From an uncultured bacterium (lineage in GTDB: Bacteria > Patescibacteriota > Minisyncoccia > Phycocordibacterales > UBA2100), in contig CAIJXH010000007.1 of the NCBI GenBank assembly GCA_903824595.1, positions 5,184-69,183 on the forward strand: DNA of 64,000 bases. The letters are read 5' to 3'. The notes beneath the pieces are model-generated. The model was not told the origin of the DNA. It searched no databases and saw nothing but the letters and a program-made list of their open reading frames with translations. This document shows, in pieces, positions 4,704 to 59,929 of this stretch; the stretch's first letter is position 1, and each line of letters begins with the position of its first letter. Made by a program: the position numbers and the translations under genes.

Positions 4704-4774
4704 GCGGGTATAGTTTAGTGGCAGAACGAGTGCTTCCCAAGCATTAGATCGGGGTTCGATTCCCCGTACCCGCA
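4704..4774 (+). tRNA. tRNA-Gly (anticodon CCC)
   Basis: Cloverleaf: acceptor GCGGGTA/TACCCGC, D-arm, anticodon stem AGTGC/GCATT with loop TTCCCAA, T-arm GGGGTTCGATTCCCC, discriminator A. Confidence 0.85.
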
Positions 4775-4837
4775 CAGACGAACAACGTGAGTAGTGTGGG
4801 TAAGCGCAATGCTTGTGCATTGCGCGTCGGGGAATCG

Positions 4838-4905
4838 AACAGCGGAGCGATGCGAGGCGAGTACGCCGAGCCGCGAGCTGGTGTCCAGACCGAAACGAGC
4901 GACGG
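4838..4905. repeat. GC-rich ~70 nt module; copy A of a dispersed repeat (see 30856-30925 and 12100-12180)
   Basis: GAACAGCGGAGCGATG...CCGCGAGCTGGTG is shared almost exactly with 30856-30925, about 80% identity over about 65 nt. It lies between tRNA-Gly and the duplicated tRNA 3' end. Confidence 0.5.
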
Positions 4906-4923
4906 CGAGTTTCGAGTCGCGGA

Positions 4924-4951
4924 CGATTCCCCGTACCCGCACAGACGAACA
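4924..4951 (+). repeat. Direct repeat (28 bp) of the tRNA-Gly 3' end plus 11 nt of flank
   Basis: CGATTCCCCGTACCCGCACAGACGAACA is identical at 4757-4784 (the T-loop to 3' end of tRNA-Gly plus flank) and at 4924-4951; an att-core-like duplication. Confidence 0.8.
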
Positions 4952-4967
4952 CGGCGCGTGTGGTACC

Positions 4968-6149
4968 ATGAAAGATATGTTCGCGCGTTTGTTTATGATC
5001 ACACTGTTTCTTGTGTATGCGGGGACGTGTTTTCCTGTATATGCGGTGATACGCCCTCCTGTCACGCCACTTGTATCAAATGGCATGGTGATTACCTTCT
5101 ATGTTCCGTATCATGGCGAGGGATGTGAGAATTCAATGGAGGGATGCGACCTCACGTCTCGTAGAGGACTTGATAATCGCGCGGTACCGCAAAGTCTCGA
5201 TCAAGTCAGGTTTGGACAGGCGACATACGTTACGCTTGCGTCGTGTCCAAACAATTACGGAAAATATTATGCAATCGGATCTATTACATACAAAAGTGCG
5301 CTTGACGATAAGATGTACACGGTAAAAGATGTTGTTGGCTATGTGCATGATACGGGTGGTGCGTTTAGAAATGGAGTCATGTACCATGGAACAGATGGAT
5401 GCAACAAAATAGATGTTGCTACTACCATTTGCACGAAATGCAAAACAAATGCTCAAGCGAGCGCGTATGCCACAGGCAACAATGTCCGATACAAGCCGTT
5501 CGGTCTTGGTGTGCCGCCCGCGGAAACTGAAGAAGAAGCTTCCTCTGATGATGAAACAGGACGCGCAGAAGAAAAAACTGCCGATAAAAATCAGCTCACT
5601 ACCATTGTAACGACGGCATCGCGCACGCAGCAATCAGCCGATCCAATGAATCTATCGTCACTTATTCAGACACTGGTATCGTCGGGTAATCAAGCGTCTC
5701 GCTCCGCGAGTACTATCAACACGCCTCAAGCGCGATCTCCGCTCGATGTGTTTTCAAACGCCGACCAGTCGCTTTTTATGAATACAGGAACTACAAATCA
5801 AAACGTACGCGACGGTAATGCGACGCAAGCGCTTACTGAATTGGCAAATAAGGATAGCCAAGCGACAGTAGACAATCAAACGTCCCGTGACCTTATGCCA
5901 ACCCGCACCACATCAGCGCAAGCGTTGCACGTCACGAATCAACCAACGGACACCGTTAGTCCACAGCTAAGCCAATCAGGAGCTCATGCATCACTTTCCA
6001 CCATACGTGATGGCGCGTATTTTACGGATCCACAGACAGCTGTTTCCGCACAGCCTCCTTTCACATCTTCTGATGCAGCAGGCACGCACGGTATACAAAC
6101 CATCCGTTGGGGACAATTGCAAGTTTCCCCGATTCCTGTTACAAGCTAA
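4968..6149 (+). CDS. Secreted 3D-domain protein (MltA/RlpA-like double-psi beta-barrel) with a Ser/Thr/Gln-rich C-terminal tail
   Basis: Signal-peptide-like N-terminus MKDMFARLFMITLFLVYAGTC. 3D-domain signature ...VGYVHDTGGAFRNGVMYHGTDGCNKIDV with three conserved Asp. Start chosen at the ATG at 4968; the track ORF begins upstream inside the tRNA-linked repeat region. Confidence 0.7.
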   Translation: MKDMFARLFMITLFLVYAGTCFPVYAVIRPPVTPLVSNGMVITFYVPYHGEGCENSMEGCDLTSRRGLDNRAVPQSLDQVRFGQATYVTLASCPNNYGKYYAIGSITYKSALDDKMYTVKDVVGYVHDTGGAFRNGVMYHGTDGCNKIDVATTICTKCKTNAQASAYATGNNVRYKPFGLGVPPAETEEEASSDDETGRAEEKTADKNQLTTIVTTASRTQQSADPMNLSSLIQTLVSSGNQASRSASTINTPQARSPLDVFSNADQSLFMNTGTTNQNVRDGNATQALTELANKDSQATVDNQTSRDLMPTRTTSAQALHVTNQPTDTVSPQLSQSGAHASLSTIRDGAYFTDPQTAVSAQPPFTSSDAAGTHGIQTIRWGQLQVSPIPVTS

Positions 6150-9146: not shown

Positions 9147-11999
9147 ATGAAGCAGTACGATCACACAAAGATAGAGAAGAAATGGCAAAAAGAGTGGACG
9201 AAAAAAAAGCTGTATAAAACCGCCGACACGGTGAAAGGTAAAAAGAATTTCCACCTGCTCCTCGAGTTCCCCTATCCGTCCGGCAATTTGCACATCGGGC
9301 ACTGGTACGCCTTTGCGGTGCCCGACATTCTGGCGCGCACACTGCGAATGCAGGGAAAGAATGTGCTGTTCCCGTTTGGCTTCGACGCCTTTGGTTTGCC
9401 CGCCGAAAATGCCGCGATCAAGCGCGGACTCAATCCGCGCATTTGGACGTATCAAAACATGGCACACATGAAAAAGCAGATCGAAAGCTGTGGCGCGTCG
9501 CTCGATTGGTCGCGCGAGGTAGTTACCTGTGATCCATCCTACTATCGTTGGACGCAATGGATGTTTACGCAATTTTTCAAAAAAGGACTTGCGTACCAGA
9601 AAGAGACACCTGCCAACTGGTGCCCTTCGTGCAAGACCGTGCTCGCCAACGAGCAGCTCGTGGCAGGGAAGTGCGAGAGATGCGGCACCGAGGTGGAACA
9701 GCGCCAGATGCTTCAGTGGAATCTTGGTATTACGAAATATGCCGACCGCCTTACCGACGACCTCGCTGCCATCGACTGGCCCGAGCAGATCAAAGAAGCG
9801 CAACGCAATTGGATCGGGCGAAGCGAAGGAGCGGAGATTGATTTCAAGCTAACAATGGGCGAGAACATAACCGTCTTCACCACCCGTCCCGACACGCTTT
9901 TTGGTGCGACGTATCTCGTGCTTGCACCAGAACACCCTCTCGTAGCTCAATTCTACACAAGTCAGACTTGTGTAAATAGAGATGAAGTAGAAATGTATGT
10001 CAGACAAGCGAAGAAGAAGACCGATCTGGAACGACAGACGGAGCAAAAAGACAAAACGGGCGTCGAGCTCAAGGGTGTGAAGGCCATCAATCCTGCGACG
10101 GGAAAAGAAATCCCTGTGTGGATTGCCGATTATGTGCTTGGTCACTACGGCACCGGTGCCATTATGGCGGTGCCCGCACATGACGAGCGTGATTTTGCAT
10201 TTGCAAAAAAGTTCGGGTTGCCGATCGTGAATGTAATCGAGCCTCTTTCTGTTGATCTTGAAGGAGTGAGTCGCGCTCGACTCGACATGCCGTTTGTGGA
10301 GCGTCAGACCATTATCGCGTTTGTAAAACATTGGTCAGAAGACTCGTATCTTATTTTGGACTGGAAGCAGGTGGGGTGGCATTCGGGTGTTACGGGGGGA
10401 GTTGAAGATGGTCAAACACCGGAAGAGGCGGCGCGTGCGGAAATACACGAAGAAACAGGGTATCGCAACCTCAAGCTCCTACGAGTGTGCGGAAAAGGGC
10501 ATGAGAAATTTTTCCATGTTCCCAAAAATGTCAATCGATTGACCCACTATCAATGCTTTTTGTTTCAGCTTGAAAACGATGAGCGTGATGTGATTTCCGA
10601 CGATGAAGCACAAAAACATTCAATGCGATGGGTTCCTGCGCATCTTATCGAACATACTCTTACTGCCGCTGCGCAACGTTTTGAGTGGCGCATGCTTCAA
10701 TGTGAAGGTGCATACTGCGGTGATGGCGTACTACATAACTCCGGAGTATTCTCCGGACTCAATACAGAAGAAGCTGGAAAAAAAATGACAATGGCGTTTG
10801 GTCGCCCGAAGAAAACCTACCGCCTGCGCGACTGGGGTGTGTCGCGGCAGCGGTATTGGGGTGTGCCGATTCCGATTATCCATTGCGAAAAGTGCGGTGC
10901 GGTGCCGGTGCCCGACAAGGACTTGCCGGTGAAATTGCCGGAGGTGAAAGATTATTTGCCCACCGGTGATGGCAAATCGCCACTCGCAAAGGTGGAGAAA
11001 TGGGTCAGCGTGAAGTGTCCGCAGTGCAAAGGAAAAGCCAAACGTGAGACAGACACACTCGACACGTTCGTGGATTCTTCGTGGTACTTCTTGCGCTACG
11101 CCGATCCGAAGAACAAAACGAAATTCGCCGATCCAAAAAAGCTTAGTGCATGGATGCCGGTCGATCTCTACTCGGGTGGCGCGGAACACACTACCATGCA
11201 CCTCCTGTATTCGCGCTTCTGGCAAAAGGCGCTCTATGATTTGAAATTGGTCAAAGACAGCGAGCCATACACGCGCCGTATGAACCGCTCCCTCATCCTC
11301 GGACCCGACGGGCAGAAGATGAGCAAATCAAAAGGCAACGTGATCGATCCCGACGATGTGGTGAAGCGTCTCGGAGTCGACACAGTGCGCATGTATCTCG
11401 CCTTCGTGGGTCCGTACAACGAAGTGGCGAGCTATCCGTGGAATCCAGACGGCGTGGTGGGCGTGCGGCGATTTTTGGAGCGCGTGTGGCGTGCCGGGGA
11501 ATTGGTGGGGAAGAAGGAGGTCGCGACACTTGATGGCATCTTGCACAAGACGATCAAGAAAGTGGGCGACGACAACGCCGCGCTCAAATTCAACACCGCC
11601 ATCAGCGCACTCATGATTCTCCTGAATGCGATCGAAAAAGAGAAGGCGATAGGCACGAAACAGTGGGCGATCGTGCTGCGGCTGCTCGCGCCGTTTGCGC
11701 CGCACGTGGCGGAAGAATTGTGGCGCGCGGCAGGCAACAAAAAATCCATCCATCTCGAAACGTGGCCGAAATTTGATCCACAGAAACTCATCGACGAATC
11801 CGTGGTGATCGGCATACAGATCAACGGCAAAACGCGCGGCGAGGTTGCCATTGCCGCTGGCACCAGCAAGGAGGAAACAGAGAAAGCGGCGCGCGCGGCT
11901 ATCGCCGCGCGCCTTGAAGGCAAGCACATTCTCCGCACCATCGTCGTCCACAATCGTCTCGTGAATTTTGTTGTGAAGGAGGAATCGTCCCGCGACTAA
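9147..11999 (+). CDS. leuS: Leucyl-tRNA synthetase with an embedded Nudix-like domain (aa ~366-526)
   Basis: HIGH motif (PYPSGNLHIGHWY), KMSKS (KMSKSKGN), and the LeuRS-specific blocks YRLRDWGVSRQRYWG and DTFVDSSWYFLRY. The protein is 950 aa against about 800-860 for canonical LeuRS; the extra segment carries GGVEDGQTPEEAARAEIHEETGY, a Nudix-box-like motif. Confidence 0.95.
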   Translation: MKQYDHTKIEKKWQKEWTKKKLYKTADTVKGKKNFHLLLEFPYPSGNLHIGHWYAFAVPDILARTLRMQGKNVLFPFGFDAFGLPAENAAIKRGLNPRIWTYQNMAHMKKQIESCGASLDWSREVVTCDPSYYRWTQWMFTQFFKKGLAYQKETPANWCPSCKTVLANEQLVAGKCERCGTEVEQRQMLQWNLGITKYADRLTDDLAAIDWPEQIKEAQRNWIGRSEGAEIDFKLTMGENITVFTTRPDTLFGATYLVLAPEHPLVAQFYTSQTCVNRDEVEMYVRQAKKKTDLERQTEQKDKTGVELKGVKAINPATGKEIPVWIADYVLGHYGTGAIMAVPAHDERDFAFAKKFGLPIVNVIEPLSVDLEGVSRARLDMPFVERQTIIAFVKHWSEDSYLILDWKQVGWHSGVTGGVEDGQTPEEAARAEIHEETGYRNLKLLRVCGKGHEKFFHVPKNVNRLTHYQCFLFQLENDERDVISDDEAQKHSMRWVPAHLIEHTLTAAAQRFEWRMLQCEGAYCGDGVLHNSGVFSGLNTEEAGKKMTMAFGRPKKTYRLRDWGVSRQRYWGVPIPIIHCEKCGAVPVPDKDLPVKLPEVKDYLPTGDGKSPLAKVEKWVSVKCPQCKGKAKRETDTLDTFVDSSWYFLRYADPKNKTKFADPKKLSAWMPVDLYSGGAEHTTMHLLYSRFWQKALYDLKLVKDSEPYTRRMNRSLILGPDGQKMSKSKGNVIDPDDVVKRLGVDTVRMYLAFVGPYNEVASYPWNPDGVVGVRRFLERVWRAGELVGKKEVATLDGILHKTIKKVGDDNAALKFNTAISALMILLNAIEKEKAIGTKQWAIVLRLLAPFAPHVAEELWRAAGNKKSIHLETWPKFDPQKLIDESVVIGIQINGKTRGEVAIAAGTSKEETEKAARAAIAARLEGKHILRTIVVHNRLVNFVVKEESSRD

Positions 12000-12021
12000 A
12001 ACTTTTTCGTCAAAAAGTTTT
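11998..12021 (+). terminator. AT-rich perfect hairpin immediately after leuS (AAAACTTTTT-cgtc-AAAAAGTTTT)
   Basis: A 10 bp perfect inverted repeat overlapping the leuS stop codon. The stem is AT-only, so it is weak as an intrinsic terminator and may be a protein-binding site. Confidence 0.25.
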
Positions 12022-12099
12022 GCCTGGGCACCGCCTCGCAGTTTTGCCTACTGACAAAACAGGACTCCGTCGATTCGATTGAAAATGGAATCGAGTCAA

Positions 12100-12180
12100 G
12101 CGCTCGAAATCGTGCCGCCGCACGATGTCTCCGCCTGACCACGCTCGCGCGACCCGCCGTACTCGACGAGTCCCCGCGCT
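12100..12180. repeat. GC-rich module; copy C, a diverged relative of the 4838-4905 and 30856-30925 modules
   Basis: CGAGTCAAGCGCTCGAAATCG... is partly similar to GTCGAGCAAGCTTGCGAGACC in copy B. As in A and B, it lies directly upstream of a partial tRNA 3' end copy. Confidence 0.35.
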
Positions 12181-12184
12181 CGCC

Positions 12185-12275
12185 GTTCGATTCCCCGTAG
12201 GGACCCGACAACGCCTAAAAGCCCGACACAATGTGTCGGGCTCCAAGGCGTTGTGACCCTACGGGGAATCGAACC
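12185..12275. repeat. Long inverted repeat: the tRNA-Glu 3' end and an inverted partial copy, flanking a perfect 9 bp-stem hairpin (12221-12241)
   Basis: GTTCGATTCCCCGTAGGG occurs on the + strand at 12185-12202 and as its reverse complement inside tRNA-Glu at 12258-12275. The arms extend to about 30 bp (…GACAACGCC / GGCGTTGTG…) around GCCCGACACAATGTGTCGGGC. Confidence 0.65.
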
Positions 12276-12325
12276 CCGATTTAAGCCTTGAGAAGGCTCC
12301 GTCCTAACCGTTAGACGATAGGGCC
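12254..12325 (-). tRNA. tRNA-Glu (anticodon CTC)
   Basis: The reverse complement gives GGCCCTA...TAGGGTC acceptor, anticodon stem GAGCC/GGCTT with loop TTCTCAA, T-arm GGGGTTCGATTCCCC, discriminator A. Confidence 0.8.
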
Positions 12326-12358
12326 ATTCAAGCAAAATACATCAAAAACATCTTTTGC

Positions 12359-12673
12359 TCAACGTGCCGGCGTGCTTTGCAATTCTTTGAGCTTATCTTG
12401 TGCTTGTTTGATGATGTCTTGAATGTTGCCGAGCGATTCTTGTGCCGCGCCTTTTGTACCCTGTACCTTTGTCACGGTTGCGTGCAAAGTTCCGACTATG
12501 GGTGACAGATAGGTCTGATATGCCCACCACGGCAAGACAACCATACACGCAACGTAGATCAAGAATTTGAATATACCGCCCCAAAACGCATTTCTTCGCA
12601 TCGCGTGGAGCATGCGATTGTTGTCTCTTGCTAAGCGTTCGATTTCGCTGATACGATCAACCCCGTTTTCCAT
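12359..12673 (-). CDS. Hypothetical small membrane protein with a coiled-coil tail
   Basis: 104 aa; one or two TM segments (FWGGIFKFLIYVACMVVLPWWAY) and a C-terminal charged helix. Confidence 0.4.
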   Translation of the reverse strand: MENGVDRISEIERLARDNNRMLHAMRRNAFWGGIFKFLIYVACMVVLPWWAYQTYLSPIVGTLHATVTKVQGTKGAAQESLGNIQDIIKQAQDKLKELQSTPAR

Positions 12674-12705
12674 GGCGAGATTATAGCATGCTATAGTTTC
12701 ATCGC

Positions 12706-12777
12706 GCCCTCGTAGCTCAATGGATAGAGCAGTCCCGTCCTAAGGGAACGATGTGGGTTCGATTCCTGCCGAGGGCA
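12706..12777 (+). tRNA. tRNA-Arg (anticodon CCT)
   Basis: Acceptor GCCCTCG/CGAGGGC, D-arm GTAGCTCAATGGATAGAGC typical of tRNA-Arg, anticodon loop GTCCTAA, T-loop TTCGATT, discriminator A. There is one mismatch at the base of the anticodon stem. Confidence 0.72.
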
Positions 12778-12778
12778 C

Positions 12779-14308
12779 CTATAATTCGAACTGGTTCATT
12801 GATGTGTCGCTAGATAATGCATTCTTGAGTCTCTTTTCTGGTATTCTTGACATAAGTGCGAAAAAGGCACCAACGAGCATTACGCAAGAGGCGAGCATGA
12901 AGATCGTGTGGTATGCGGTAATCTGGGCCTTGAGTTCGATAAGCGCGATGAATTGTTGGGTGGCGTTTTGTGTATGTGTGTATAGTTCGCTGTTGTTTAC
13001 TATGGATAATACGTTGGATTCTGTGGTGTTTTTGAGTACGGTGCCAAAAATTGCTATACCGAATGCTCCCGCGATGTTGCGTACGAGCGCCAAGACTGAA
13101 GACGCTACGCCCATCTCGCTTTCTGGGACGAGTGAGGCGATCGCGTTCGTGCGTTGTGCCATGCCGAAACCAAGTCCAAACGACATGATAAAAAGCGGGA
13201 TCATAAGATCGAGAATGCTTGAGCGTACGTCGAGCCACGTGAAGAGCGACATGCCTATCGCGGCAACAATCGTCGAGAAAGCAATCACGTATTGTGTTTC
13301 CACTTTGCCGGTGAGCGCTCCGCCAATTGGTGAAGAAAGCATAAAGCCTGCTGCCATGGGAATGAAGATGAGTCCTGATTGCGTCGCACTGTAGCCAAGA
13401 AAGGTTTGTGCAAAAATAGGCAGGAGAAAAACACTTCCCATCATCCCCATGAATACAATAAAGTTATTCCCCAGTGTGTTGACGAATGGTCCGTGTGTAA
13501 AAAATTTGAGATCAATGATCGGCTCGGGGTGATGTTTCTCGATGCGATAGAACACATAACCAAAACCAAAAATACCGAGATAGCACAATGCGCTCTCGTA
13601 CGAAATCCAACCCCATTCTGTTCCTTTGTCGAGTACCAATACGAGCGATGAGAGTGCGATACCAAGCATGCTCGCACCCCACCAATCGAAGGCATGGGAA
13701 CTTCGTTCGACTTTCGATTCTGGAATGTAGGCGAGCGCCATGAGAAGTCCGATGATGCCGACGGGAAGGTTGACGAGGAATACTGATCTCCAGCCAAATG
13801 TATCGATCAAAGGACCTCCTATCAAAGGACCAAGAACTGCCGAAGCGGCAAAGGCGGATGACCATATTCCAAGTGCTTGCGCGCGCTCTTTGCCCTCGGA
13901 AAATGTGAATGCGATGATCGCCATTGCGGTGGGATAATCGGCAGAACTCGCAATTGCTTGAATGACACGAAATACAATCATGCTTCCAAGATTCCACGCA
14001 AACCCTGCCAAGACAGATCCGAAAATGAAGAGTCCAAACCCTGCAATATAGACGCGCTTTCTGCCTGTTGTGTCGCCAAGCTTTCCCCAGATAGGGACGA
14101 AGACAGCATTTGCGAGAATGTAGGCTGTCGCAATCCATCCAGCGGCGCTTACGGTGATCGAAAAGTCCTCAATGATTTTCGGCAGTGCAAGATTGACGAT
14201 CGTTTGATCGAGACGACCGAGAAACGTTCCGACGATGACGGTAATAAGAATGAGCCAGCGCGAGCTGTCTTTGGGTGCAAGCGAAGCCCCTACTGTTTGA
14301 ATACCCAT
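12779..14308 (-). CDS. MFS transporter, DHA2 (EmrB/QacA) family, 14 TMS
   Basis: N-terminal LALPKIIEDF...GRLGD-like motifs (GKLGDTTGRKR), 509 aa, 14 hydrophobic segments. It is the last gene of the MarR-HlyD-HlyD-MFS operon. The track ORF 12753..13394(+) overlapping it and tRNA-Arg is spurious. Confidence 0.85.
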   Translation of the reverse strand: MGIQTVGASLAPKDSSRWLILITVIVGTFLGRLDQTIVNLALPKIIEDFSITVSAAGWIATAYILANAVFVPIWGKLGDTTGRKRVYIAGFGLFIFGSVLAGFAWNLGSMIVFRVIQAIASSADYPTAMAIIAFTFSEGKERAQALGIWSSAFAASAVLGPLIGGPLIDTFGWRSVFLVNLPVGIIGLLMALAYIPESKVERSSHAFDWWGASMLGIALSSLVLVLDKGTEWGWISYESALCYLGIFGFGYVFYRIEKHHPEPIIDLKFFTHGPFVNTLGNNFIVFMGMMGSVFLLPIFAQTFLGYSATQSGLIFIPMAAGFMLSSPIGGALTGKVETQYVIAFSTIVAAIGMSLFTWLDVRSSILDLMIPLFIMSFGLGFGMAQRTNAIASLVPESEMGVASSVLALVRNIAGAFGIAIFGTVLKNTTESNVLSIVNNSELYTHTQNATQQFIALIELKAQITAYHTIFMLASCVMLVGAFFALMSRIPEKRLKNALSSDTSMNQFEL

Positions 14309-22936: not shown

Positions 22937-23008
22937 TCCGGGGTAACTCAATGGTAGAGTGGCTCCCTGTTAAGGAGTAAGTTGTGGGTTCGAGTCCCAC
23001 CCCCGGAG
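22937..23008 (+). tRNA. tRNA-Asn (anticodon GTT)
   Basis: Acceptor TCCGGGG/CCCCGGA, anticodon stem GCTCC/GGAGT with loop CTGTTAA, T-arm GTGGGTTCGAGTCCCAC, discriminator G. Confidence 0.85.
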
Positions 23009-24566
23009 CCGAAGGTCGGATAATATACCACCCTGAAAAAACCCATTGTTTTGGGCTTTTTCAGTTTTTGGTGTTTTGTAGAAGGCTTCCTCTGCTTGCA
23101 AAAGTTCTGCAAACAAGGGGGAGGGAACGGAGGTTACTATAACCCCATCGGCAACCTCGAAGTGTTCCCAGAAAAACGCAAGGTATTGCCGCTTGAGATC
23201 AAATGATGCTTTCGTGTATGCGTGATAGATGTCGCGTGCCAGCAGCAGTACCTCCTGCGCGACATCTACATTCATGTCTCGCTGATCTTCCAGTCCAAGT
23301 AGGTCGTCGTCAATGTCTGTCATTTGAGTCGTGATCTCTTTTCGTATTCGAGTGAAATCTGCGTCTTGAATGACACCATCGAAGAGTTTATCCTCTGCGG
23401 TCTTTCGTTTGCCTTCAAGGGCGGTTCTCTTGTTCACGAGTGCTTGTCGCCGACCATCGTACCTCTTCCGCCTATCAAGAAAGATGTGTTTCGTCTTGTT
23501 TATGACGATATTGATGAACTCGTCCGAGAATTGCAGGTCTTTGAACTTTTCGGCAATCTTGCTTTCAAGATCGACTTGCTCGCAATACCGCCCGCACCCC
23601 ATCCTGTTGGAGCAATGGTAGTAAGCGATACCTTTTCTAATGCCACTCTGCGACATAGCGTTTTCCATGATTGGCACAGCGCACGAAACCAGAGAGGAGC
23701 CATTTATGCTTTCGCCTGCGGCACGCCTTGTGATTGTTGTGTTCAAGTATCGTCTGTACCTGATTGAATGTCGCCTCGTCGATGAGCGGCTCATGCTTGC
23801 CGTTCTTGTTGTGTACCTTTCCCCACTTCACTTCACCGAGGTAGATGCGATTACGCAACAAATCATAGATGCGGCTCGGTGATAAGGGGTTCCCTTTGTG
23901 GCTTCGCAGTCCGCGACGACTCATCGCGTCGGCAAGGTCGTATACGCTGTATACACCAGTTGCATAGAGACGGAAGAGTTCGGTAATGAGTGGAGCGGCT
24001 ATCGGGTCTGGGACGATTATCTTGCGCCCAACACGACTCACGTTTGGGTCAGGATTATCGGTGTTGACATATCCTGCGGGAGGAATGGTGGGGAAGTAGC
24101 CCGCCTCGGTTTTTGCGTAGAGTGTACTTTTCACCTTGTCCGATATTTGGTCGCGGTAATACTGATTGATGTTCGCGTGCATTCGATCCGACATTTTTGA
24201 GTGAGCATTGTTTTCGGGGCTTGCCTGTTGAATGTAGATGAGTCGGATGTCGTTTTCGAAGATAAGATCCATGAATTCGATATGCGCTCGTTCGTTGCGA
24301 AACATACGATCCGACGCAAGGGTAATAACTGCCTCGATTTTCTTTGTTGTGATGAGGTTTCTGATGTGATTCAGCCCAGGTCGTTCGGCTTTATGACCGC
24401 TAATGCCGCCATCATCGAGAATCTCTAGCAGATCGTACCCGTCGCGCTCTGCACGTTCACGACAGAGCTTTTCCTGTACCTCCAAGGATAGTCCATCATC
24501 TTTTTGATCTTTTGAACTTACCCTTACGTAACCGACTGCCAATGGTTTTTCTTTTTTATGATTCAT
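22970..24566 (-). pseudogene. Large serine recombinase, split by a frameshift into two overlapping ORFs (23637..24566 N-terminal part; 22970..23794 C-terminal part)
   Basis: The N-terminal ORF carries the resolvase catalytic domain (AVGYVRVSSKDQ...) and the recombinase domain, ending ...GFVRCANHGKRYVAEWH. The second frame continues with the zinc-ribbon part (YYHCSNRMGCGRYCEQVDLESKI) and a coiled coil; together about 535 aa. The last ~12 codons run through the tRNA-Asn gene. Confidence 0.7.
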
Positions 24567-24653
24567 AGTGCGTATAATAAGTACTAATGTTTAGAAGTAA
24601 TGTGTACGCGAGTGTGGATACATGAGTTGTCTGAATCATCCACACTCAATCCG

Positions 24654-25664
24654 CTACTCATCGGAGGAAACACTAGATGGGTTTTCGTCCGATCCGACAG
24701 TTATCGAGTAATGTGCTTTGTTGTGTTTACTGGTTGTCCGTGCCAAACGCCCCTCGTCCACAAGTTGTGTGAGAGCCGAAGTGAGCACTGATCGGCTGAA
24801 GGCTTTTTCCACCGATTCGTCAATCTCTGTCAGGGAGAGTTCTGTAGCGTCTGTTTTTGCGAATGCTCCCATCACAGCGTTTTTTGCTTCATCCCGCTTC
24901 TCTCTTTGTTTGTCATATTCACCGATATATTCAAGACACACAGTGCCTAATGCAGTGTCCGCCATCACCTTTGCGGCAAACTCATCTTGCACGGGTGCCT
25001 GTCGAAGTTTATGTTGAGCAAATATGACGACACGCTCTTTCTTCTGGTACGAGAGCGCTATGTGGGAATCCACTGCCGCGAAGATGTCGGATGAGCCACG
25101 CAAGCTATTCGGCGACGTTGCACCCTGAAACAATTCTTTGCGATGATGGTGAGTACATATTACGCTCACGCCCTTGGCAGTGATTCTTTTCAGGTTGCCG
25201 AACACTACAGCAATCTGTCTCGAGTCGTTTTCATCTCCTTTGTGGAATCGAATAAGCGAATCTAAAACAATGAGTCCAATGCTCTCCTGTTCAACGTATC
25301 TAAGGAGTGCTGCGACATGCTCCTCCTTGTCTAACTGGAAGCCCTCGTCAAAGTTGAACCACACAAATGCATCCATCGATGCGCCAAGTGATATGAGTCG
25401 CTCTTTGATGTGCTTCGCATGGTTTTCTTTGTCGAGAATGAGTACATTGCGTTGGTGGGGGATTGTGAATTGTCCGAGGAATGGTTTGCGTCCAGCCACG
25501 CACAACGCGAGATGCAAGCACGCCCACGTCTTGTAACTTGCAGGCATTCCCGAGATGACCGTGATGGTCTGTGTCGGGATCAGTCTCTCGACGAGCCAAT
25601 TATCGGTGCCATATTCTGTACCGAGAATGTCGCGTACTGTCGTCGCTTCGAATTTCTTTTCCAT
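24654..25664 (-). CDS. RecA-like P-loop ATPase (AAA_25 / RepA-like helicase-loader family), typical of plasmid and integrative-element replication modules
   Basis: A Walker A-like ISGMPASYKTW, a Walker B LIVLDSLIRFH, and a C-terminal acidic tail. Confidence 0.65.
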   Translation of the reverse strand: MEKKFEATTVRDILGTEYGTDNWLVERLIPTQTITVISGMPASYKTWACLHLALCVAGRKPFLGQFTIPHQRNVLILDKENHAKHIKERLISLGASMDAFVWFNFDEGFQLDKEEHVAALLRYVEQESIGLIVLDSLIRFHKGDENDSRQIAVVFGNLKRITAKGVSVICTHHHRKELFQGATSPNSLRGSSDIFAAVDSHIALSYQKKERVVIFAQHKLRQAPVQDEFAAKVMADTALGTVCLEYIGEYDKQREKRDEAKNAVMGAFAKTDATELSLTEIDESVEKAFSRSVLTSALTQLVDEGRLARTTSKHNKAHYSITVGSDENPSSVSSDE

Positions 25665-25684
25665 ATCAGTGAATATGTTACTTG

Positions 25685-25912
25685 CTAATGGTTTCTAGGA
25701 GATTGCTCCTCCTCCAATCTTTCCTGTGCTTTTCGCTCGGCACCCTGTTCAAGGATTTGCGCCGCCAGAAGCTCGGCAAAAAGCAGTGCTGCCTGTGTTA
25801 TCCGCTCATGGTTCTTGTATGCGTTATTGTTGATAATGTCTCCCATGCGCGGGTAGTTTCCCAAAAGAAAACTGCCCAAACTATTGGGCAAGATAGAGCG
25901 ACGATAGGGCAT
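25685..25912 (-). CDS. Hypothetical small protein (75 aa)
   Basis: An ORF in the intergenic space of the element's minus-strand operon; no recognisable motif. Confidence 0.3.
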   Translation of the reverse strand: MPYRRSILPNSLGSFLLGNYPRMGDIINNNAYKNHERITQAALLFAELLAAQILEQGAERKAQERLEEEQSPRNH

Positions 25913-25923
25913 CAGATTTTGCC

Positions 25924-26778
25924 CTATTCAGGGTACTCAACGATCATTAGATATTTACCTGCGCCCCTATCAGGATTCAGAACATCCACATGAATATCTT
26001 GTGATGACGCCTTTCTCAACTTACTTCGGATACGCCTCACATCATCGCGGAATTGATCTTTTTTGCGATTTGCAATTTTCAGCATTGCTTGGACGGAGGT
26101 AAGTGTTCCATCTCTGATCGACACATTACCGCGCTTCTCCATGCGATTCTCGAACAAGATCTCCACAATTTTGCCCTGAGAACGATAGAAAGGGACTTTG
26201 AATTTTCCATAGTCCAAATACCCATTCGCAAACTTCAAATGACATGCCTCGCGATTTCGGACGGATTTTTTCAAGTCATGTTCTATTTTTTTCAGCTTCT
26301 GTGGCAAGGTAGCTCCATCGAAAGAGAAATTGGCAACAATTGCGTCGATGGTGAACGGACCATCCACGTCGGGAACCTCAACGACTTGTGATTTGAGATT
26401 CTTGATGACATCCATTTTCTCAAGTTCAATCAGGAATCTCTCTTTGATCATCGAAACCACTCGCATCGTTGGATTTACGGCAACTGCTGAAAACAGTCCG
26501 ACAACGAGTGTGTAATCATTCGGTGCGGGTTTTTTGGCACGAACAATGGACAGAAGTTTTTCAACCATCTCGAGTTGGTACTCACTCTGACGAGAATATA
26601 TGCCGCGTAAAAATTCCTCATCCATCCTATCCGTGATCAAACGGACTGGTGTCTTGGAAATGCGTCGCGCTGTCTCTAAATGCTGAATCTCGTGAATGAT
26701 CTCTGGCGCAAGATTATCAAATGGCGGATGATTCATAGTCATCAGTAGTTTCCAGTTTTTATGCCCTATATAGTACAT
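25924..26778 (-). CDS. Hypothetical protein (possible replication/initiator protein of the element)
   Basis: 284 aa, basic C-terminus; first gene of the minus-strand operon, beside a divergent intergenic region that holds hairpins. The start may be the internal Met at 26742. Confidence 0.45.
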   Translation of the reverse strand: MYYIGHKNWKLLMTMNHPPFDNLAPEIIHEIQHLETARRISKTPVRLITDRMDEEFLRGIYSRQSEYQLEMVEKLLSIVRAKKPAPNDYTLVVGLFSAVAVNPTMRVVSMIKERFLIELEKMDVIKNLKSQVVEVPDVDGPFTIDAIVANFSFDGATLPQKLKKIEHDLKKSVRNREACHLKFANGYLDYGKFKVPFYRSQGKIVEILFENRMEKRGNVSIRDGTLTSVQAMLKIANRKKDQFRDDVRRIRSKLRKASSQDIHVDVLNPDRGAGKYLMIVEYPE

Positions 26779-27022
26779 AAAAAACTAAAAACTACGAAAA
26801 GAATAGCGATAATGTCGCAATCGCTCTGCATCGGACAAAGACAGCCGCGCATAAACACGAGACGATAATCGAACCATTTGAACACTTTGATCATCCGCTT
26901 TTCGCAAGGGTGTGCGAACAGTGGTATAGTGGCGGGGTACGTTTCGGCGTACTCACACAACCAATATCGAGCCGCAAGGCTAGTGCCTAAACCATCGAGT
27001 CATCGGTGGCATGGTGCGAAAA

Positions 27023-27063
27023 CGTAAGTCACAGAAAACCCGTCATTCAGGGCGTGACTTACG
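27023..27063. promoter_or_regulatory. Perfect 10 bp inverted repeat (CGTAAGTCAC...GTGACTTACG) with a 21 nt spacer in the divergent intergenic region of the element
   Basis: It lies between divergently transcribed genes 25924..26778(-) and 27103..27720(+); a candidate operator or origin. Confidence 0.3.
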
Positions 27064-27102
27064 TTATAGGGGGAAACTCCTATATGACCGCAAGGTCTCC
27101 TG

Positions 27103-27720
27103 GTGGCGGGCTTTATGTTGGAACAAAAAACACAATTTATTCAGAATGAAGTACTTGGCTTGGTTATTCGAGGTGCATTTCCGCCGTACACTAAAATCTA
27201 TGCCAAGATTGCCACGGAAAAAAACAGGGCACGAATGCGACACATAATCCGTGAGAAGATTGTTGAAATGGCGGAATTGTATCGGCAAAAGCATGTTTCT
27301 CCCGAGGCACATGTTGATAACATCGAGACATTGCAAAAATATATCAATACGCAATGTTGTAATTTTTTGACGAAAGAAATCTCTTTCGGTATCGCTCAAA
27401 AACTATTGAATCTCTATCTAAAATATGAATGGTGCCTGAATAGATTCAATCACGATGTACATCCGCCACATTGTCCTGTGGACTCCATTGTAATCAAGCA
27501 AGCGAACAAGGAGGGTGCGAAAATACCACCAAAGCCGCCATGGTCTCAAATGGCAGCGAATGATTACCTGTACGCGATAGAAGAAATTGGCAGGGTGGCT
27601 AGTAAGTGCCAAAAGAATATGCCCGCATGGGAATTGGATATCTTCAATGCGAATAATCCTGCCTACGGATTTGATGTCAGTGTGGATAAATCGGTTGGAT
27701 TTTTATCGGATGGAAACTAA
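27103..27720 (+). CDS. Hypothetical protein
   Basis: 205 aa, several Cys (CCNF, HCPVD); no recognisable domain. The start could be the Met at 27115. Confidence 0.45.
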   Translation: MAGFMLEQKTQFIQNEVLGLVIRGAFPPYTKIYAKIATEKNRARMRHIIREKIVEMAELYRQKHVSPEAHVDNIETLQKYINTQCCNFLTKEISFGIAQKLLNLYLKYEWCLNRFNHDVHPPHCPVDSIVIKQANKEGAKIPPKPPWSQMAANDYLYAIEEIGRVASKCQKNMPAWELDIFNANNPAYGFDVSVDKSVGFLSDGN

Positions 27721-27742
27721 TATCGTATCGTACTAAAAAATC

Positions 27743-28837
27743 ATGAGAAACACATCATTCAAAATCTTTTTCGCGCTCGGCTTGTTTATTCTCATGCTTC
27801 CGCAATTTTCGTTTGCCGAGTTCACTTCAGATTTGCATTACGGTTCCACTGGTGCCGATGTTTCCGCGCTTCAAGAATTTCTTACCCAACAGAAAGTGTA
27901 TTCCGGTCCGACAAGTGGCAGTTTCTATTCACTCACCCTAGCGGGTGTAAAAAAGTTCCAATCTGCTGAAGGAATAACACCGGTGAGCGGCTATGTCGGA
28001 CGCGTAACGCGAGGAGTAATAAATCAAATTCTTGCAGGACAGGTTTCAACATCGGAAGAAAATGCCACTACGACGCGACCACCTGTGGATTTATCGCAAC
28101 AAAAAGATCAATCCTCCTCTATATCAAGTGTCTCACCAACTATTACACTTCCCAATGGTGCAATAGTGCGACTGAATACGGACGGTGCTGTTACTTCATA
28201 CACACCACCAACAACTCTTCGATCGTCAGTGGCAGAGCAAAATCAGAAATCTTCACGAGACATCACAACTCAAACACCGACACTGACCCCTCTTCCAACA
28301 CCATCAATAGCCATACCCACATCTTCGCCCATAATAGATTCATCTACCACATCGACTGTTGCTGTTGCGCGCGCTCTTACCATAGCAAATAGTCCGCACA
28401 CTGTTTCGAAAACGGTCGTTGTTGGTAGCCAAAGAGTATCCTTCGCGACAATCCAACTTGTTGCATCCGACTCGCCTTACGATATTTATGTAGGTGCACT
28501 GCCACTTATTCTCAATGTAGGAAATTCCGCAAAAGCAACTGACATTAGTGATTGTATGATATGGCTTAGTGGTAACCTGATCAATGCTGGCGCTAATATC
28601 GTGAGTTTTCCGAAGGTTGGCACAAAGACAATTTTTAGTTTTGACCCAACTGTAATGGTGCCAAAATACGGCGCACTCTCACTCCCTCTCACCTGCAATA
28701 TCGCAACCTCTTCTACACCTGGCGGAACATATTCATGGTCTGTCGACACGAATACAACAGACTATATTGGTCTTTCTTCCGCAACCATAATCAACGTAGC
28801 AGATGGTCCATCGCCAACAATTACTATCTCAAACTGA
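27743..28837 (+). CDS. Secreted protein with an N-terminal peptidoglycan-binding domain, a Ser/Thr/Pro linker and a C-terminal beta-rich domain
   Basis: A signal peptide (MRNTSFKIFFALGLFILMLPQFSFA), a PG_binding_1-like block (GSTGADVSALQEFLTQQKVYSGPTSGSFYSLTLAGVKKFQSAEGI), and a T/S/P-rich linker. Confidence 0.6.
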   Translation: MRNTSFKIFFALGLFILMLPQFSFAEFTSDLHYGSTGADVSALQEFLTQQKVYSGPTSGSFYSLTLAGVKKFQSAEGITPVSGYVGRVTRGVINQILAGQVSTSEENATTTRPPVDLSQQKDQSSSISSVSPTITLPNGAIVRLNTDGAVTSYTPPTTLRSSVAEQNQKSSRDITTQTPTLTPLPTPSIAIPTSSPIIDSSTTSTVAVARALTIANSPHTVSKTVVVGSQRVSFATIQLVASDSPYDIYVGALPLILNVGNSAKATDISDCMIWLSGNLINAGANIVSFPKVGTKTIFSFDPTVMVPKYGALSLPLTCNIATSSTPGGTYSWSVDTNTTDYIGLSSATIINVADGPSPTITISN

Positions 28838-28854
28838 GAGACATCCTTCAAACC

Positions 28855-29691
28855 ATGCAGGACTTGCTGTCATTTATAGTGAGACGTTTGGGTTGGAGGG
28901 CGTTGCATCTGATACTACCATTGAGCATCATTGCTCTCTCGGTGGCGGGCTGTGTGGCGATTGTGTACTACACGAGTAGACCTGCCGACAGTCTCTTGTG
29001 TCCAAGCGCATACACCACCACCGAAGAGGCGACGGCATCCTTCCAAGCATTCACGAATAACTTTTACGACGCACATCCAGATGCCTCACTGAGTGATCTT
29101 GCTGCCGCACGCCACGACTTCTATGTATCGCATCACTGCACGCAAGAACTTGCGGCATACCAACAAGCAGTAGATGGTAACGCTGATCCTGCGACAATGA
29201 AGATGATAGACCAAGCGATTGGAAAGGTTTTGACAGCAATAAAGGACGCCGAATCAAAACGCCCGCCCGGCATTGGAGCGTCACCCAGCGAAAAAGAAAT
29301 CTACGAAAATCCCTATATCAAGCACATCCGTACAGCCTTACACGGGTACTTGGACGGGACGAATGATGGGGTTGAAGTGGATAGTCTTGCTCTCGGCACA
29401 CAGAATGAGCGTTGCGGTCTTGAACACTTTGACAAATCGTATTACAGGAGCAAATTTGTCATTTACAGTGCCGAAAACAATGAGTACGGAGGAGTCGAAG
29501 CCAACATAATTTTTATTGATAAGCCCAACGCTGTATTCTGGGCTTGGGTCTATCAATATGGTGGTGATGAGAATGGCGATAAGAAATATGCCTTGAGAGG
29601 CTTTTGCGAGCAGAAATTACCTGCGGAACATAAAGCCGAATTGCTCAAGACAATGTCGGAGTTTGCACACGAATCCAAATACTCCATTTGA
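28855..29691 (+). CDS. Hypothetical membrane-anchored protein
   Basis: An N-terminal TM (LHLILPLSIIALSVAGCVAIVYY) followed by a soluble domain. Start at the ATG at 28855; the track ORF starts upstream inside the previous gene. Confidence 0.5.
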   Translation: MQDLLSFIVRRLGWRALHLILPLSIIALSVAGCVAIVYYTSRPADSLLCPSAYTTTEEATASFQAFTNNFYDAHPDASLSDLAAARHDFYVSHHCTQELAAYQQAVDGNADPATMKMIDQAIGKVLTAIKDAESKRPPGIGASPSEKEIYENPYIKHIRTALHGYLDGTNDGVEVDSLALGTQNERCGLEHFDKSYYRSKFVIYSAENNEYGGVEANIIFIDKPNAVFWAWVYQYGGDENGDKKYALRGFCEQKLPAEHKAELLKTMSEFAHESKYSI

Positions 29692-29912
29692 TCGGTGTTG
29701 AAGACGATGCTTCAAAGTGCGCACATCAGTCTAATGTTGGAACCTGCCACAAACAATATACGGTTCCACCTTTTCTTTTTGCTGCGAAGCGTTTAGGTGG
29801 GAATGATAAGGTGAGAGCGGGCGGAGTCATGTTATGTGAATCCGTGCGCAATCAAATACAACTGTGCGGGCGGCTCGCATTCTGTCTCCACACATGCCAT
29901 AATTTCAACGGC

Positions 29913-30067
29913 AAGAACATTGCTTCAATCCCTGCACTACCGCTGGCTATTTATATGTCCGTAAGCCACGCGGGTTGGTACTTGAAAAGTGCCTTCATCG
30001 TCCTCAGATCTACGTAGAGCGGAGAATCGATACAGTAATGCAGGGATTGAAAGAATGTCGTTGCTTG
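29913..30067. repeat. Imperfect ~30 bp inverted repeats (29913-29940 and 30035-30067) separated by ~95 bp in a non-coding stretch
   Basis: CAAGAACATTGCTTCAATCCCTGCACTAC pairs with GTAATGCAGGGATTGAAAGAATGTCGTTGCTTG; the arms are about 85% complementary. Confidence 0.4.
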
Positions 30068-30225
30068 TCGCCAACCCTATGACAGAGTATCACAAAAACG
30101 AACAATGGGAAGTAAAATGCATACAAACAAGAGAACATAGCATGTATTTACAGAGATTTTTATGACATTTAGAGATACTGGTAAGGGTTGTTGACAGGAT
30201 AAATGGGAGGAGTAAAATCAGCTGT

Positions 30226-30600
30226 ATGGAAGAATATAACTTTGATGAGTTCAATTCGGTTGGGACAAGATTCAATCCAACAATTAGTCTTGGCGATTCG
30301 GAAAGGTTTTATTTGGGCGGTTCCTTCTGTAGGAAATACAACATATCCGATATGGTTGGGGTAAAACTTATGTACGATAAAGCAAAAAATGCTGTGGGTT
30401 TTAGGTTCTTGAAGCAGAAAGAAGACGGTATGATTGGCCTAAAGAGACTTGGTAAAGATTCCGCGTACATCAATGCAAAAGCATTTCTTGGCATGTATGA
30501 TATAGAGTATAAGAAGTTCTCGAATCGTTACTTACCAAAAGAGGTCAATAGTGGAGATAAGAAGATTCTGGTCATTGAACTCAAAGAGACAATGAAGTAG
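30226..30600 (+). CDS. Hypothetical protein (124 aa)
   Basis: A complete ORF preceded by a GGGAGGAG RBS-like purine run; no recognisable domain. Confidence 0.45.
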   Translation: MEEYNFDEFNSVGTRFNPTISLGDSERFYLGGSFCRKYNISDMVGVKLMYDKAKNAVGFRFLKQKEDGMIGLKRLGKDSAYINAKAFLGMYDIEYKKFSNRYLPKEVNSGDKKILVIELKETMK

Positions 30601-30855
30601 ATTCGCTAAAGTTGTCGAAAATATCGTTTCGTAAAACGGACTACTATCAATGTTGATCAACAGATGTTTCCATTCGTTGCATCAATCTGATCATTATCAG
30701 CCGATGTTCCATCTGCAACATGAATTCTCTGTTGAAAAATAGGGGTATATTTATGTCATGTTCCGGGAGCCGCTGACATACATCGCCTACAGGGCGATTC
30801 TGTCATATGCGGCTCCGAGGGAGACAAGCGCCTGGACGCTTGTCGAGTGGGACGA

Positions 30856-30925
30856 GAACAGCGGAGCGATGTCGAGCAAGCTTGCGAGACCGCGAGCTGG
30901 TGCCTAACCCGAGCCGAGTGTCGAT
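30856..30925. repeat. GC-rich module; copy B, closely related to 4838-4905
   Basis: GAACAGCGGAGCGATGTCGAGCAAGCTTGCGAGACCGCGAGCTGGTG lies in a 450 bp non-coding stretch, about 20 nt before the imperfect tRNA-Asn 3' end copy. Confidence 0.5.
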
Positions 30926-31052
30926 GAGGTGAGAGGTGAAGGAGAGTCTACCCCGGAGCAAAGAAGTTTTAGTTCCCTTTTCAATTTTTCAACCCCGATT
31001 TTTCTTTTTAGGCAGGGGCGGCGCAGAAATGCCAAAATACGGAGAGTGAATC

Positions 31053-58572: not shown

Positions 58573-58602
58573 CGAAGCGCACAAAAGACAGTTTTCGTGG
58601 GG

Positions 58603-59881: not shown

Positions 59882-59929
59882 CCGTGGGGGGATTTACAAG
59901 ATGAATACGGTGTGTTATTGTTGTCGCAC

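Follow-up and report, generated by a model that had tools for sequence, protein, structure and literature searches.

In a 64-kb window of genomic DNA from an uncultured bacterium of the candidate phyla radiation (CPR; Patescibacteriota, contig CAIJXH010000007.1), the tRNA-Gly(CCC) gene is followed by a perfect second copy of its own 3′ end. This copy forms the 3′ arm of a non-coding module of ~150 nt located at 4791–4942, where coordinates refer to the window, that is, to the whole stretch of 64,000 nucleotides that was analysed. The module is a member of a family in CPR genomes. The family itself, its fold, the covariation of its helices, the matching of its arms to the tRNA, the lack of a linked protein and the patchy presence of the module at the same tRNA were observed directly. 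The preferred reading, to which we assign roughly even chances, is that the module is a protein-less, insertion-derived entity aimed at the segment from the T-loop to the 3′ end of tRNA and transfer-messenger RNA (tmRNA) genes, and that it acts as a folded single strand. The preliminary description of this DNA had interpreted the repeat as an att-bounded remnant, but the view that it is the scar of a lost island is not supported. If the preferred reading holds, the modules constitute an overlooked class of structured element in the streamlined genomes of many CPR lineages, with four in this 64-kb window, tailored to the neighboring tRNA or tmRNA. RNA and mobile-element catalogues would gain a family, gene calls that enter the modules would be corrected, and the question would arise of how two short arms are rewritten for a new tRNA under an identical scaffold. 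The answer might lie in a novel mechanism of targeting or templating, or in a novel tRNA mimic in experimentally difficult organisms.

The duplicated tRNA-Gly tail and its fold

The tRNA-Gly(CCC) gene is intact and occupies positions 4704–4774 of the plus strand according to Rfam (69.7 bits) or 4704–4775 according to ARAGORN. The 28-nt sequence CGATTCCCCGTACCCGCACAGACGAACA is present as perfect copies at 4757–4784 and 4924–4951 on the same strand, as had been recorded before, and occurs exactly twice in the window. Further matches with ≤3 mismatches were not found in the window, and no match arose in 100 dinucleotide-preserving shuffles (0/100). The repeat is real and chance is excluded. With the tRNA end placed as by Rfam and ARAGORN, the repeat consists of 18 nt of tRNA, from C56 in the T-loop to the discriminator base A73, plus 10 nt of 3′ flank. 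The first copy matches this segment and the flank CAGACGAACA exactly; the second comprises T-loop and T-stem (4924–4933), acceptor (4934–4942) and a copy of the 10-nt flank. The extension past the tRNA that had been described earlier is thus genuine, but its length had been given as 11 nt. The copies are separated by 139 nt, in agreement with the earlier figure of ~140 bp, and their starts lie 167 nt apart. A repeat that extends beyond the tRNA end fits insertion or duplication rather than selection on the tRNA part alone, and in this respect the att interpretation retains value although a remnant does not.

Covariance model R1 matches 4791–4939 of the plus strand with 150 bits (E 4e-38), and the acceptor-like helix extends to 4942. 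The region 4785–4951 folds as a single strand with −90 kcal/mol compared to a mean of −61 for shuffled sequences (z −6.53), and the minimum free energy and centroid structures agree. The first part of the 5′ arm, GTGTGGGTA (4794–4802), is complementary to the acceptor-strand copy TACCCGCAC and pairs with 4934–4942 with one G-U in both structures, an arrangement that recurs in the family; alternatively, the same strand is able to pair with tRNA-Gly itself at 4767–4775. The second part, CGGGGAATCGAAC (4828–4840), is the exact reverse complement of tRNA positions 53–65 (4754–4766), and its segment 4828–4836 pairs with 4925–4933 in the predicted fold. Hairpin H0 (4804–4825), with 9 bp and the loop TTGT, lies between the two parts. 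The arm-arm pairs enclose a junction of ~88 nt, with hairpins Ha and Hb set as a three-way junction inside the closing stem. The conserved core (4837–4881) consists of GAACAGCGGAGCG, the covarying hairpin Ha (4852–4871) and CGCGAGCTGG, with the helices CAGC/GCTG and GCG/CGC bordering a GGA/GA internal loop. Hairpin Hb (4883–4924) has a semi-conserved base, GTCCAGAC...GAGTCGCGGAC, and the apex GACGGCGA, and the conserved GAGTCGNGGN precedes the second tail copy. All of these features are on the plus strand. The closing stem also pairs T-loop bases 56–60, and therefore copies the duplex of the gene and not the tRNA fold. The 10-nt flank takes no part in the predicted structure. The ends of the unit, ACGTGAGTAG... 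and ...GAGTCGCGGA, do not form an inverted repeat; the segments that are inverted lie inside the unit and derive from the target. A terminator-like site is absent between tRNA-Gly, module and the downstream open reading frame (ORF), consistent with co-transcription at this locus.

Searches of the window locus with Rfam 15, at gathering and permissive thresholds, returned no match to the spacer or module core at E ≤ 10, and no module match was obtained at E ≤ 0.5 for seven further loci. Weak tmRNA_permuted and Guanidine-III matches were far below threshold and confined to the T-arm of the tRNA and to the second copy of the repeat. A hammerhead or K-turn reading of the core was rejected by eye, as the GGA/GA loop with its 1-nt bulge does not conform to the consensus. 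A split, permuted or intron-containing tRNA also was rejected, given that the tRNA upstream is complete and that an anticodon arm is missing from the module.

The ORF downstream (4968–6149, plus strand, 393 aa) begins with an ATG located 17 nt past the second repeat copy, as stated in the preliminary description. The product had been called a 3D-domain protein, but no Pfam domain was detected in it even at E ≤ 10. Public gene calls put the start of this gene at 4809 (446 aa), within the module; this start is wrong and ATG 4968 is correct instead. These gene calls concern window 4794–4967 and loci L052–L055, and modules elsewhere probably are annotated as coding sequence too. Homologues of the downstream protein occupy other contexts without tRNA-Gly, and synteny could not be traced through it. 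One homologue, in another CPR genome (L001), is encoded at a distance of a few kb from a bAvd-like gene, behind which lies a reverse transcriptase of the diversity-generating retroelement (DGR) type (11703–13086).

Distribution, covariation and arms of the module family

The pattern GAACAGCGGAGCG-N10-40-CGCGAGCTGG was searched over contigs of species-representative genomes. It matched 48 loci, ~42 of them in CPR genomes, and several genomes were matched two or three times. The hosts belong to Kaiser-, Sacchari-, Uhr- and Paceibacteria, to Magasanik-, Kerfeld-, Vogel- and Nomurabacteria or to unnamed Patescibacteria. Four module-bearing contigs are labelled Gammaproteobacteria, one of which (L035) shares genes with Magasanikbacteria loci. 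Six matches in GC-rich non-CPR sequences (L004, L007, L009, L031, L043 and L046) are regarded as chance because they lack flanking similarity; they scored ≤27 bits or did not match the model. The covariance model recognized 46 true copies in the pattern loci. A description of such an element was not found in the literature, coverage of which was incomplete, and this is weak evidence of novelty.

The components follow a recurrent order: a same-strand tRNA, often a terminator hairpin, the acceptor-complement strand, H0, the antisense of T-stem and T-loop, the core, and the tRNA copy from C56 to the 3′ end. With the window counted, 32 of 49 modules begin 13–61 nt past a same-strand tRNA, and eleven partner isotypes are represented (Ser, Glu, Leu, Asp, Met, Ile, Tyr, Arg, Pro, Gly and Lys). 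Some modules sit within tRNA clusters, and 43 of 78 neighboring tRNAs have no module. In L018 (977–1559, minus strand) the module is positioned 41 nt after a tmRNA gene and copies the tmRNA acceptor strand; in its tail, 10 inserted nucleotides separate the T-stem part from the acceptor copy, and similar insertions of 8 nt are present in L035 and L050. The direct repeat begins at C56 in nearly all loci, with a sharp break in tRNA identity at T55/C56. The repeats are 17–26 nt long in most members and their length varies at the right end only, most others than that of the window ending at the tRNA end plus 0–5 nt. An invariant GAAC is antisense to G53–C56, a segment that is present in the tRNA and absent from the tail copy.

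The window itself contains four modules, and the spacer at tRNA-Gly aligns with sequences near 30820–30960 and on the minus strand downstream of tRNA-Glu, giving three homologous copies that model R1 detects as type 1. The second type-1 module (30810–30958, plus strand, 113 bits) has arms that match tRNA-Asn(GTT) (22937–23010, plus strand), which is 7.8 kb upstream. The third (11983–12080, minus strand) is a partial match of 62.6 bits and is the distal one of two tandem modules after tRNA-Glu(CTC) (12253–12325, minus strand), the partner of both; these two tRNAs were identified with ARAGORN and Rfam. A diverged type-2 module (12085–12215, minus strand) directly follows tRNA-Glu(CTC). Over 18 nt its 5′ arm CCCTACGGGGAATCGAAC is perfectly antisense to the tail of tRNA-Glu, and its 3′ arm is reduced to CGATTCC. 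The tandem pair (11983–12215) hence represents two core subtypes, and the distal module overlaps the last 17 nt of the convergent ORF 9147–11999. With modules at tRNA-Gly, tRNA-Asn and tRNA-Glu, three of the four tRNAs in the window own one.

RNAalifold predicted 36 pairs, 28 with compensatory changes. For a 53-pair structure in 34 sequences, 83.7% of cells were paired compared with 34–40% when the 3′ partners were slid by 1–3 columns. The covariation score was 0.506 against ≤0.156 in controls, and none of 500 shuffles reached any observed measure. H0, Ha and Hb were 89–91% paired with covariation in nearly every pair: helix 2 (H0) was 90.8% paired with 9/9 covarying pairs, and helix 6 (Hb) was 88.5% paired with 14/15. 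Helix 5 of the core covaries as well. The acceptor-like helix scored 53% because its sequence is tRNA-specific and MAFFT was unable to align it; the helix is present in most copies when these are inspected sequence by sequence. The structure of the module is under selection and the 139 nt are not decayed filler. Mismatches of the G-U and U-G types (75) exceeded A-C and C-A (43), and G-A and A-G (143) exceeded U-C and C-U (34), which points to the tRNA-sense strand as the folded strand. The covariation is that of a structured non-coding RNA, yet it fits RNA and folded single-stranded DNA alike.

Strong covariation, with tandem G-A and G-U pairs, also would be displayed by a resident and immobile non-coding RNA gene. 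Such an RNA would be tRNA-shaped, derived from tRNA operon transcripts and trimmed by tRNA-processing enzymes. Its helices would be acceptor- and T-like, a single hairpin would replace the D and anticodon arms, and the three-way junction would occupy the position of the T-loop. Gene conversion would maintain the match between its arms and the neighboring tRNA, and the RNA might serve the host, for example by imitating the tRNA acceptor end, by acting as its decoy or by pairing with the 3′ half of the tRNA. The presence of modules within tRNA clusters accords with this proposal, as do the compensatory changes by which paralogues in one genome (L013, L019 and L025) and positional counterparts (L119/L108 and L019/L028) differ, and the complementarity of the 5′ arm to the tRNA even where the 3′ arm is truncated. 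However, the closing stem with its paired bases 56–60 is duplex-like rather than tRNA-like, and a flank of 10 non-tRNA nucleotides without a role in the fold is not anticipated in a resident RNA. Considering also the occupancy and terminator data described below, we judge this explanation unlikely.

The arms can differ entirely between cores that are almost the same. The DeMMO3_42 genome contains modules after tRNA-Met (L028) and tRNA-Tyr (L049) with nearly identical cores. The module at tRNA-Met of another species (L015) is 100% identical to L049 from GAAC to GGCCGA, whereas both arms and the base of H0 are wholly different. In the related Uhrbacteria loci L015, L019 and L028, a divergent tRNA-Leu(CAA)/tRNA-Met pair is inverted relative to the flanks, with breakpoints at the tRNA 3′ ends. 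A block composed of terminator T_a and module is behind tRNA-Met in L015 and behind tRNA-Leu in L019. In L028 a different terminator, T_b, is ahead of the module and T_a is behind it, and the flanking terminators are exchanged in comparison with L015. T_a (L015, L019) and H0 (L015, L019, L028) are homologous, while the arms fit whichever tRNA adjoins. Identical cores with different arms could reflect movement with re-templating of the arms.

In another proposal, a short interspersed nuclear element (SINE)-like transcript is copied by a reverse transcriptase encoded elsewhere. Snap-back synthesis on the tRNA would make both arms, and target-primed insertion would yield a long and variable target duplication. 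Snap-back would duplicate the tRNA tail in inverted orientation, which is the arrangement of the arms, and these are perfect over 17–18 nt in L093, L083 and the window module at 12085–12215. The tRNA-specific part begins after A58, and m1A58 halts reverse transcriptases on tRNA primers. Repeat length varies only at the right end, CPR genomes encode DGR and other reverse transcriptases, and one such gene is near the homologous locus L001. Nevertheless, no reverse transcriptase is linked to the modules, there is no poly-A or other mark of retro-insertion, and the mechanism would be hypothetical in bacteria. We regard this origin as very improbable.

Patchy occupation and possible mobility

Metagenome contigs were scanned with the 3′ half of tRNA-Gly, which gave 76 loci, 71 with sufficient downstream sequence. 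The LepA-DivIC-tRNA-Gly synteny of the window was conserved in 48 of the 71 contigs, with LepA 51–88% identical. Approximately 85% of the 71 tRNA-Gly(CCC) contigs are empty, and ~9 carry a module or second tail copy, with differing core variants. Two (L119 and L108) matched the covariance model. Diverged cases were distinguished by eye: a second tail copy is present in L074 and L083, a tail copy with a mismatch in L075 and L115, and a type-2 core at the contig end in L093. The repeat in L074 includes a flank copy of 5–6 nt, akin to the 10 nt in the window. In L123 (~13871–13950 in tRNA orientation) only the 5′ arm is present, composed of acceptor complement, hairpin, antisense T-arm and GAA, and the core and tail are missing; this half-module is either a deletion product or an intermediate. 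Among the ~20 closest relatives (LepA ≥75%) a module was seen only in L093, where it is of another subtype, and the module in the window is therefore a lineage-specific gain. A gain of this type fits the perfect repeat with its 10-nt non-tRNA flank. Such patchiness at a given tRNA, with different variants at the occupied loci, is unlike a host function and counts against a resident RNA.

The preliminary description had suggested that related genomes be compared. The comparison showed that most tRNA-Gly sites are empty and that none has a full element: no larger element is located between tail copies at any of the 71 loci, and occupied sites hold solely a module of ~115–190 nt. The proposal under scrutiny took the repeats for the attL and attR sites of a formerly larger island that had integrated at the tRNA and then lost its interior, so that 139 bp of the right arm survive. 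A direct repeat of the tRNA 3′ end plus flank is in keeping with this, partial tRNA genes being well known as the attR of 9–23-kb elements (PMC9897764), and at tRNA-Asn a related module is close to the distal end of a serine-recombinase insert. However, a cargo-free unit of ~150 nt with the same boundaries is found ~50 times, the constraint on its structure does not agree with decay, neither a recombinase nor any other protein is recurrent around 42 members, and no relative has a full element at tRNA-Gly. The GC-rich interior had been described as a module that is also found at the right end of the tRNA-Asn element. The relationship between the two modules is authentic, but the arms of the module at 30810–30958 match tRNA-Asn, and a second att-like core and a hairpin precede it such that the insert seemingly lies between tRNA and module. 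An island remnant is largely refuted already and retains hardly any probability. It also had been stated that the att interpretation would fail if the repeat proved to be a conserved structure with no element ever present. The data come near to this, except that the structure is patchy and insertion-like.

The preferred reading builds on the following architecture. The 5′ arm, which is usually split by the 9-bp hairpin, is the reverse complement of the last ~18 nt of the neighboring tRNA, comprising the 3′ strand of the acceptor, the T-stem and the 3′ half of the T-loop. In the fold it pairs with the 3′ arm, and the folded tRNA-sense strand thereby rebuilds the duplex of the tRNA gene 3′ end as a stem around the junction. 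A non-autonomous element of this design would target the T-loop-to-3′-end segment of tRNA and tmRNA genes, and insertion would leave the intact tRNA on the left and a displaced or duplicated tail on the right. The arms would supply target recognition, and the conserved junction may be a handle for a factor encoded elsewhere. The active folded strand might be RNA produced by read-through transcription from the tRNA, which is favored, with folded single-stranded DNA as the alternative.

If DNA is the active form throughout, the module could be a miniature integrative element whose folded tRNA-sense strand is the attachment site for a recombinase that is encoded elsewhere and acts with the tRNA T-loop; entry could be as single-stranded DNA through natural transformation. 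The stem is a base-for-base duplex copy of the gene 3′ end, T-loop bases included, and the antisense and sense copies are ~90 nt apart, as are the target copies in CTX attP. The sharp break at T55/C56 and the use of tmRNA as a target also favor integration of this kind, as do the tandem copies (L035, L033 and tRNA-Glu in the window) and the patchy distribution. Terminators on both sides of a module would be expected if a replacement tail and terminator displaced the original (L015, L028). Conversely, no recombinase is linked to modules in the 42 loci. The strict pattern gave 0 matches in viral contigs (IMG/VR); nine relaxed-pattern matches there were dismissed as chance, with no tRNA nearby and with model matches in only 2/9 (≤23 bits), and BLAST of phage and plasmid records revealed no true copy. 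Missing too is the T-stem-like inverted partner that would make up the left half of a normal recombinase core; the second copy is preceded by GAGTCGNGGN instead. A double-stranded circle of 167 bp is physically unlikely, and a long junction sequence conserved across phyla is more typical of RNA. A wholly DNA-based element is possible but improbable.

The two forms of the preferred reading are separated in part by terminators. Ten of 31 tRNA-adjacent modules, that at tRNA-Gly among them, have no terminator ahead, and 11 of 30 are followed by their own terminator. These counts, the complex conserved junction, the tandem G-A and G-U pairs and the positions in tRNA clusters favor RNA, and the terminator that follows a module also would suit a resident RNA. 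DNA is favored by the location of the remaining modules behind a terminator, by the T-loop bases in the closing stem and by terminators on both sides, as would be expected from an insertion that brings a replacement tail. Judged from these sequence features, RNA appears somewhat ahead of folded single-stranded DNA as the active form.

Several observations weigh against the preferred reading. A terminator-like hairpin with a T-run intervenes between tRNA and module in 21 of 31 cases without room for a promoter, which argues against efficient expression as RNA and also counts against a resident RNA. No mobilizing enzyme was found in protein searches around the 42 loci. Gene conversion between resident copies could produce identical cores with different arms just as movement could. 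The acceptor part of the 3′ arm is missing, and the tRNA-matched 5′ arm kept, in L013, L019, L025 and the window module at 12085–12215, which simple arm-arm pairing fails to explain. The G-U excess is modest, and the search pattern itself enforced the invariance of GAACAGCGGAGCG and CGCGAGCTGG in the alignments. Four other assemblies of the same strain, recognized by an identical DivIC-like protein, are identical at the locus with no excised or empty allele, and the predicted empty-site junction had 0 matches in metagenomes.

With respect to partners, all-against-all clustering of 408 ORFs from 42 8-kb loci disclosed no recurrent protein family near modules, and tblastn of the tRNA-Asn insert proteins against the module loci revealed nothing recurrent. 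The serine recombinase of the window had a single distant match, in L017, upstream of the tRNA. A bolder version of the preferred reading is that a ~125-nt junction carries exchangeable guide cassettes, each an antisense arm plus target copy, that steer it to any tRNA or tmRNA 3′ end, with mobilization by a CPR-wide factor. This version is distinctly unlikely; if true, it would be a nucleic acid-guided mobile element of unprecedented design and possibly a tool-like targeting system.

Comparison with known systems and other features of the window

Islands and prophages that integrate at tRNA and tmRNA genes (PMC9897764) resemble the modules in the tail repeat from the T-loop, the intact left tRNA, the use of tmRNA and the empty sites in relatives. 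A direct repeat of the tRNA 3′ end is present at both boundaries (28 nt here, 17–26 nt in most members). In contrast to islands, the gap is ~140 nt with no integrase within or adjoining it (139 nt gene-free; nothing recurrent in 42 loci), cargo-bearing versions are absent from relatives (71 contigs), and there are ~50 cargo-less copies. The interior, rather than being free to decay as in an island remnant, is conserved with an antisense copy of the target, and all of its helices with freedom to vary show compensatory changes. Miniature inverted-repeat transposable elements (MITEs) were discounted: terminal inverted repeats are lacking and the duplication is 17–28 nt compared to 2–10 bp in MITEs.

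The folded attP of CTX phage, integrative mobile elements exploiting Xer (IMEX), which use host XerCD, and integron attC sites share with the modules inverted target copies ~90 nt apart that fold into a target-mimicking stem, and this stem was found both in the window and in the family. Conservation of structure above sequence and a single active strand are further parallels, as is the absence of an element-borne recombinase in the case of IMEX. Unlike these systems, the module targets the T-loop and acceptor of a tRNA instead of dif or attI, without a phage genome, island or cassette ORF: tRNA and tmRNA tails are targeted, cargo is absent, and the viral, phage and plasmid collections searched yielded no true copy. 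The would-be right core lacks GTT, the long junction is conserved across phyla, and no link to Xer or IntI is apparent. An integron attC site was rejected specifically: the left box ATCGAAC is near to RYYYAAC, but the right copy starts with CGA and does not contain the GTT of the core GTTRRRY. No integron integrase or cassette ORFs recur across the 42 loci.

Group II introns with exon- and intron-binding sites (EBS/IBS), IS110 bridge RNA, IS1111 seekRNA and TnpB right-end element RNA (reRNA) are comparable in having target-matched segments in a conserved scaffold, segments that here differ between identical scaffolds (L015/L049). They diverge from the modules in that no recombinase, reverse transcriptase or nuclease gene is adjacent to the latter, the module arm is paired in cis to a copy of the target and not exposed in a loop, and in size and fold the module agrees with none of these families in Rfam. 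An IS110/IS1111 bridge or seek RNA was rejected, there being no adjacent recombinase ORF and the arms being base-paired mutually. tRNA-like RNAs (the tmRNA domain, YrlA and mascRNA) likewise have an acceptor-like helix stacked on a T-stem-like helix, reside beside tRNA genes and possibly are processed by tRNA enzymes. The modules differ from them in the three-way junction that replaces the T-loop, the lack of D and anticodon arms, the paired discriminator base in the window copy, helices that copy whichever tRNA is upstream, and again the lack of an Rfam match. As the likeness is partial in each system, the module is not assigned to islands, attP or attC sites, guide RNAs or tRNA-like RNAs. 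A bacterial RNase P RNA of class A is encoded at 166–562 (115 bits, barely over the gathering score), and the organism therefore has an RNA enzyme potentially able to process tRNA-like helices.

An insert of ~7.8 kb with low GC content (22970–30780) follows tRNA-Asn, and the low GC persists to ~35 kb. It encodes a large serine recombinase in two overlapping frames on the minus strand (23637–24566 and 22970–23794), the latter entering the tRNA-Asn 3′ end, as well as an AAA_25 ATPase (24654–25664) and a PG_binding_1 protein (27743–28837), and it contains a LOOT RNA (26984–27098; Rfam RF03000, 74.9 bits). Approximately 40 nt upstream of the tRNA-Asn module is CCGGGAGCCG (30763–30772), which is 9/10 identical to the tRNA-Asn 3′ end CCCGGAGCCG (23002–23011) and is followed by a hairpin of −17 kcal/mol; these two sequences are candidate crossover cores. 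Within the module, GTGGGAC is perfectly complementary to GTCCCAC of tRNA-Asn and pairs more poorly with the degraded tail of the module itself. Most simply, a serine-recombinase element would have integrated at the tRNA-Asn 3′ end and displaced the tRNA's own module by 7.8 kb. As the insert would have landed between tRNA-Asn and its module, the latter probably is not the right end of the element. Contigs that have the protein to the right of the tRNA-Asn module show an identical arrangement.

Elsewhere, the region 42000–44000 stands out from the remainder of the window with a GC content of 0.54–0.58 and a strongly negative GC skew (−0.38 at 43–44 kb). The 18-nt sequence GGGTAACTCCTCACACCC forms a perfect inverted repeat at 58601–58618 and 59866–59883, with the arms 1247 nt apart.

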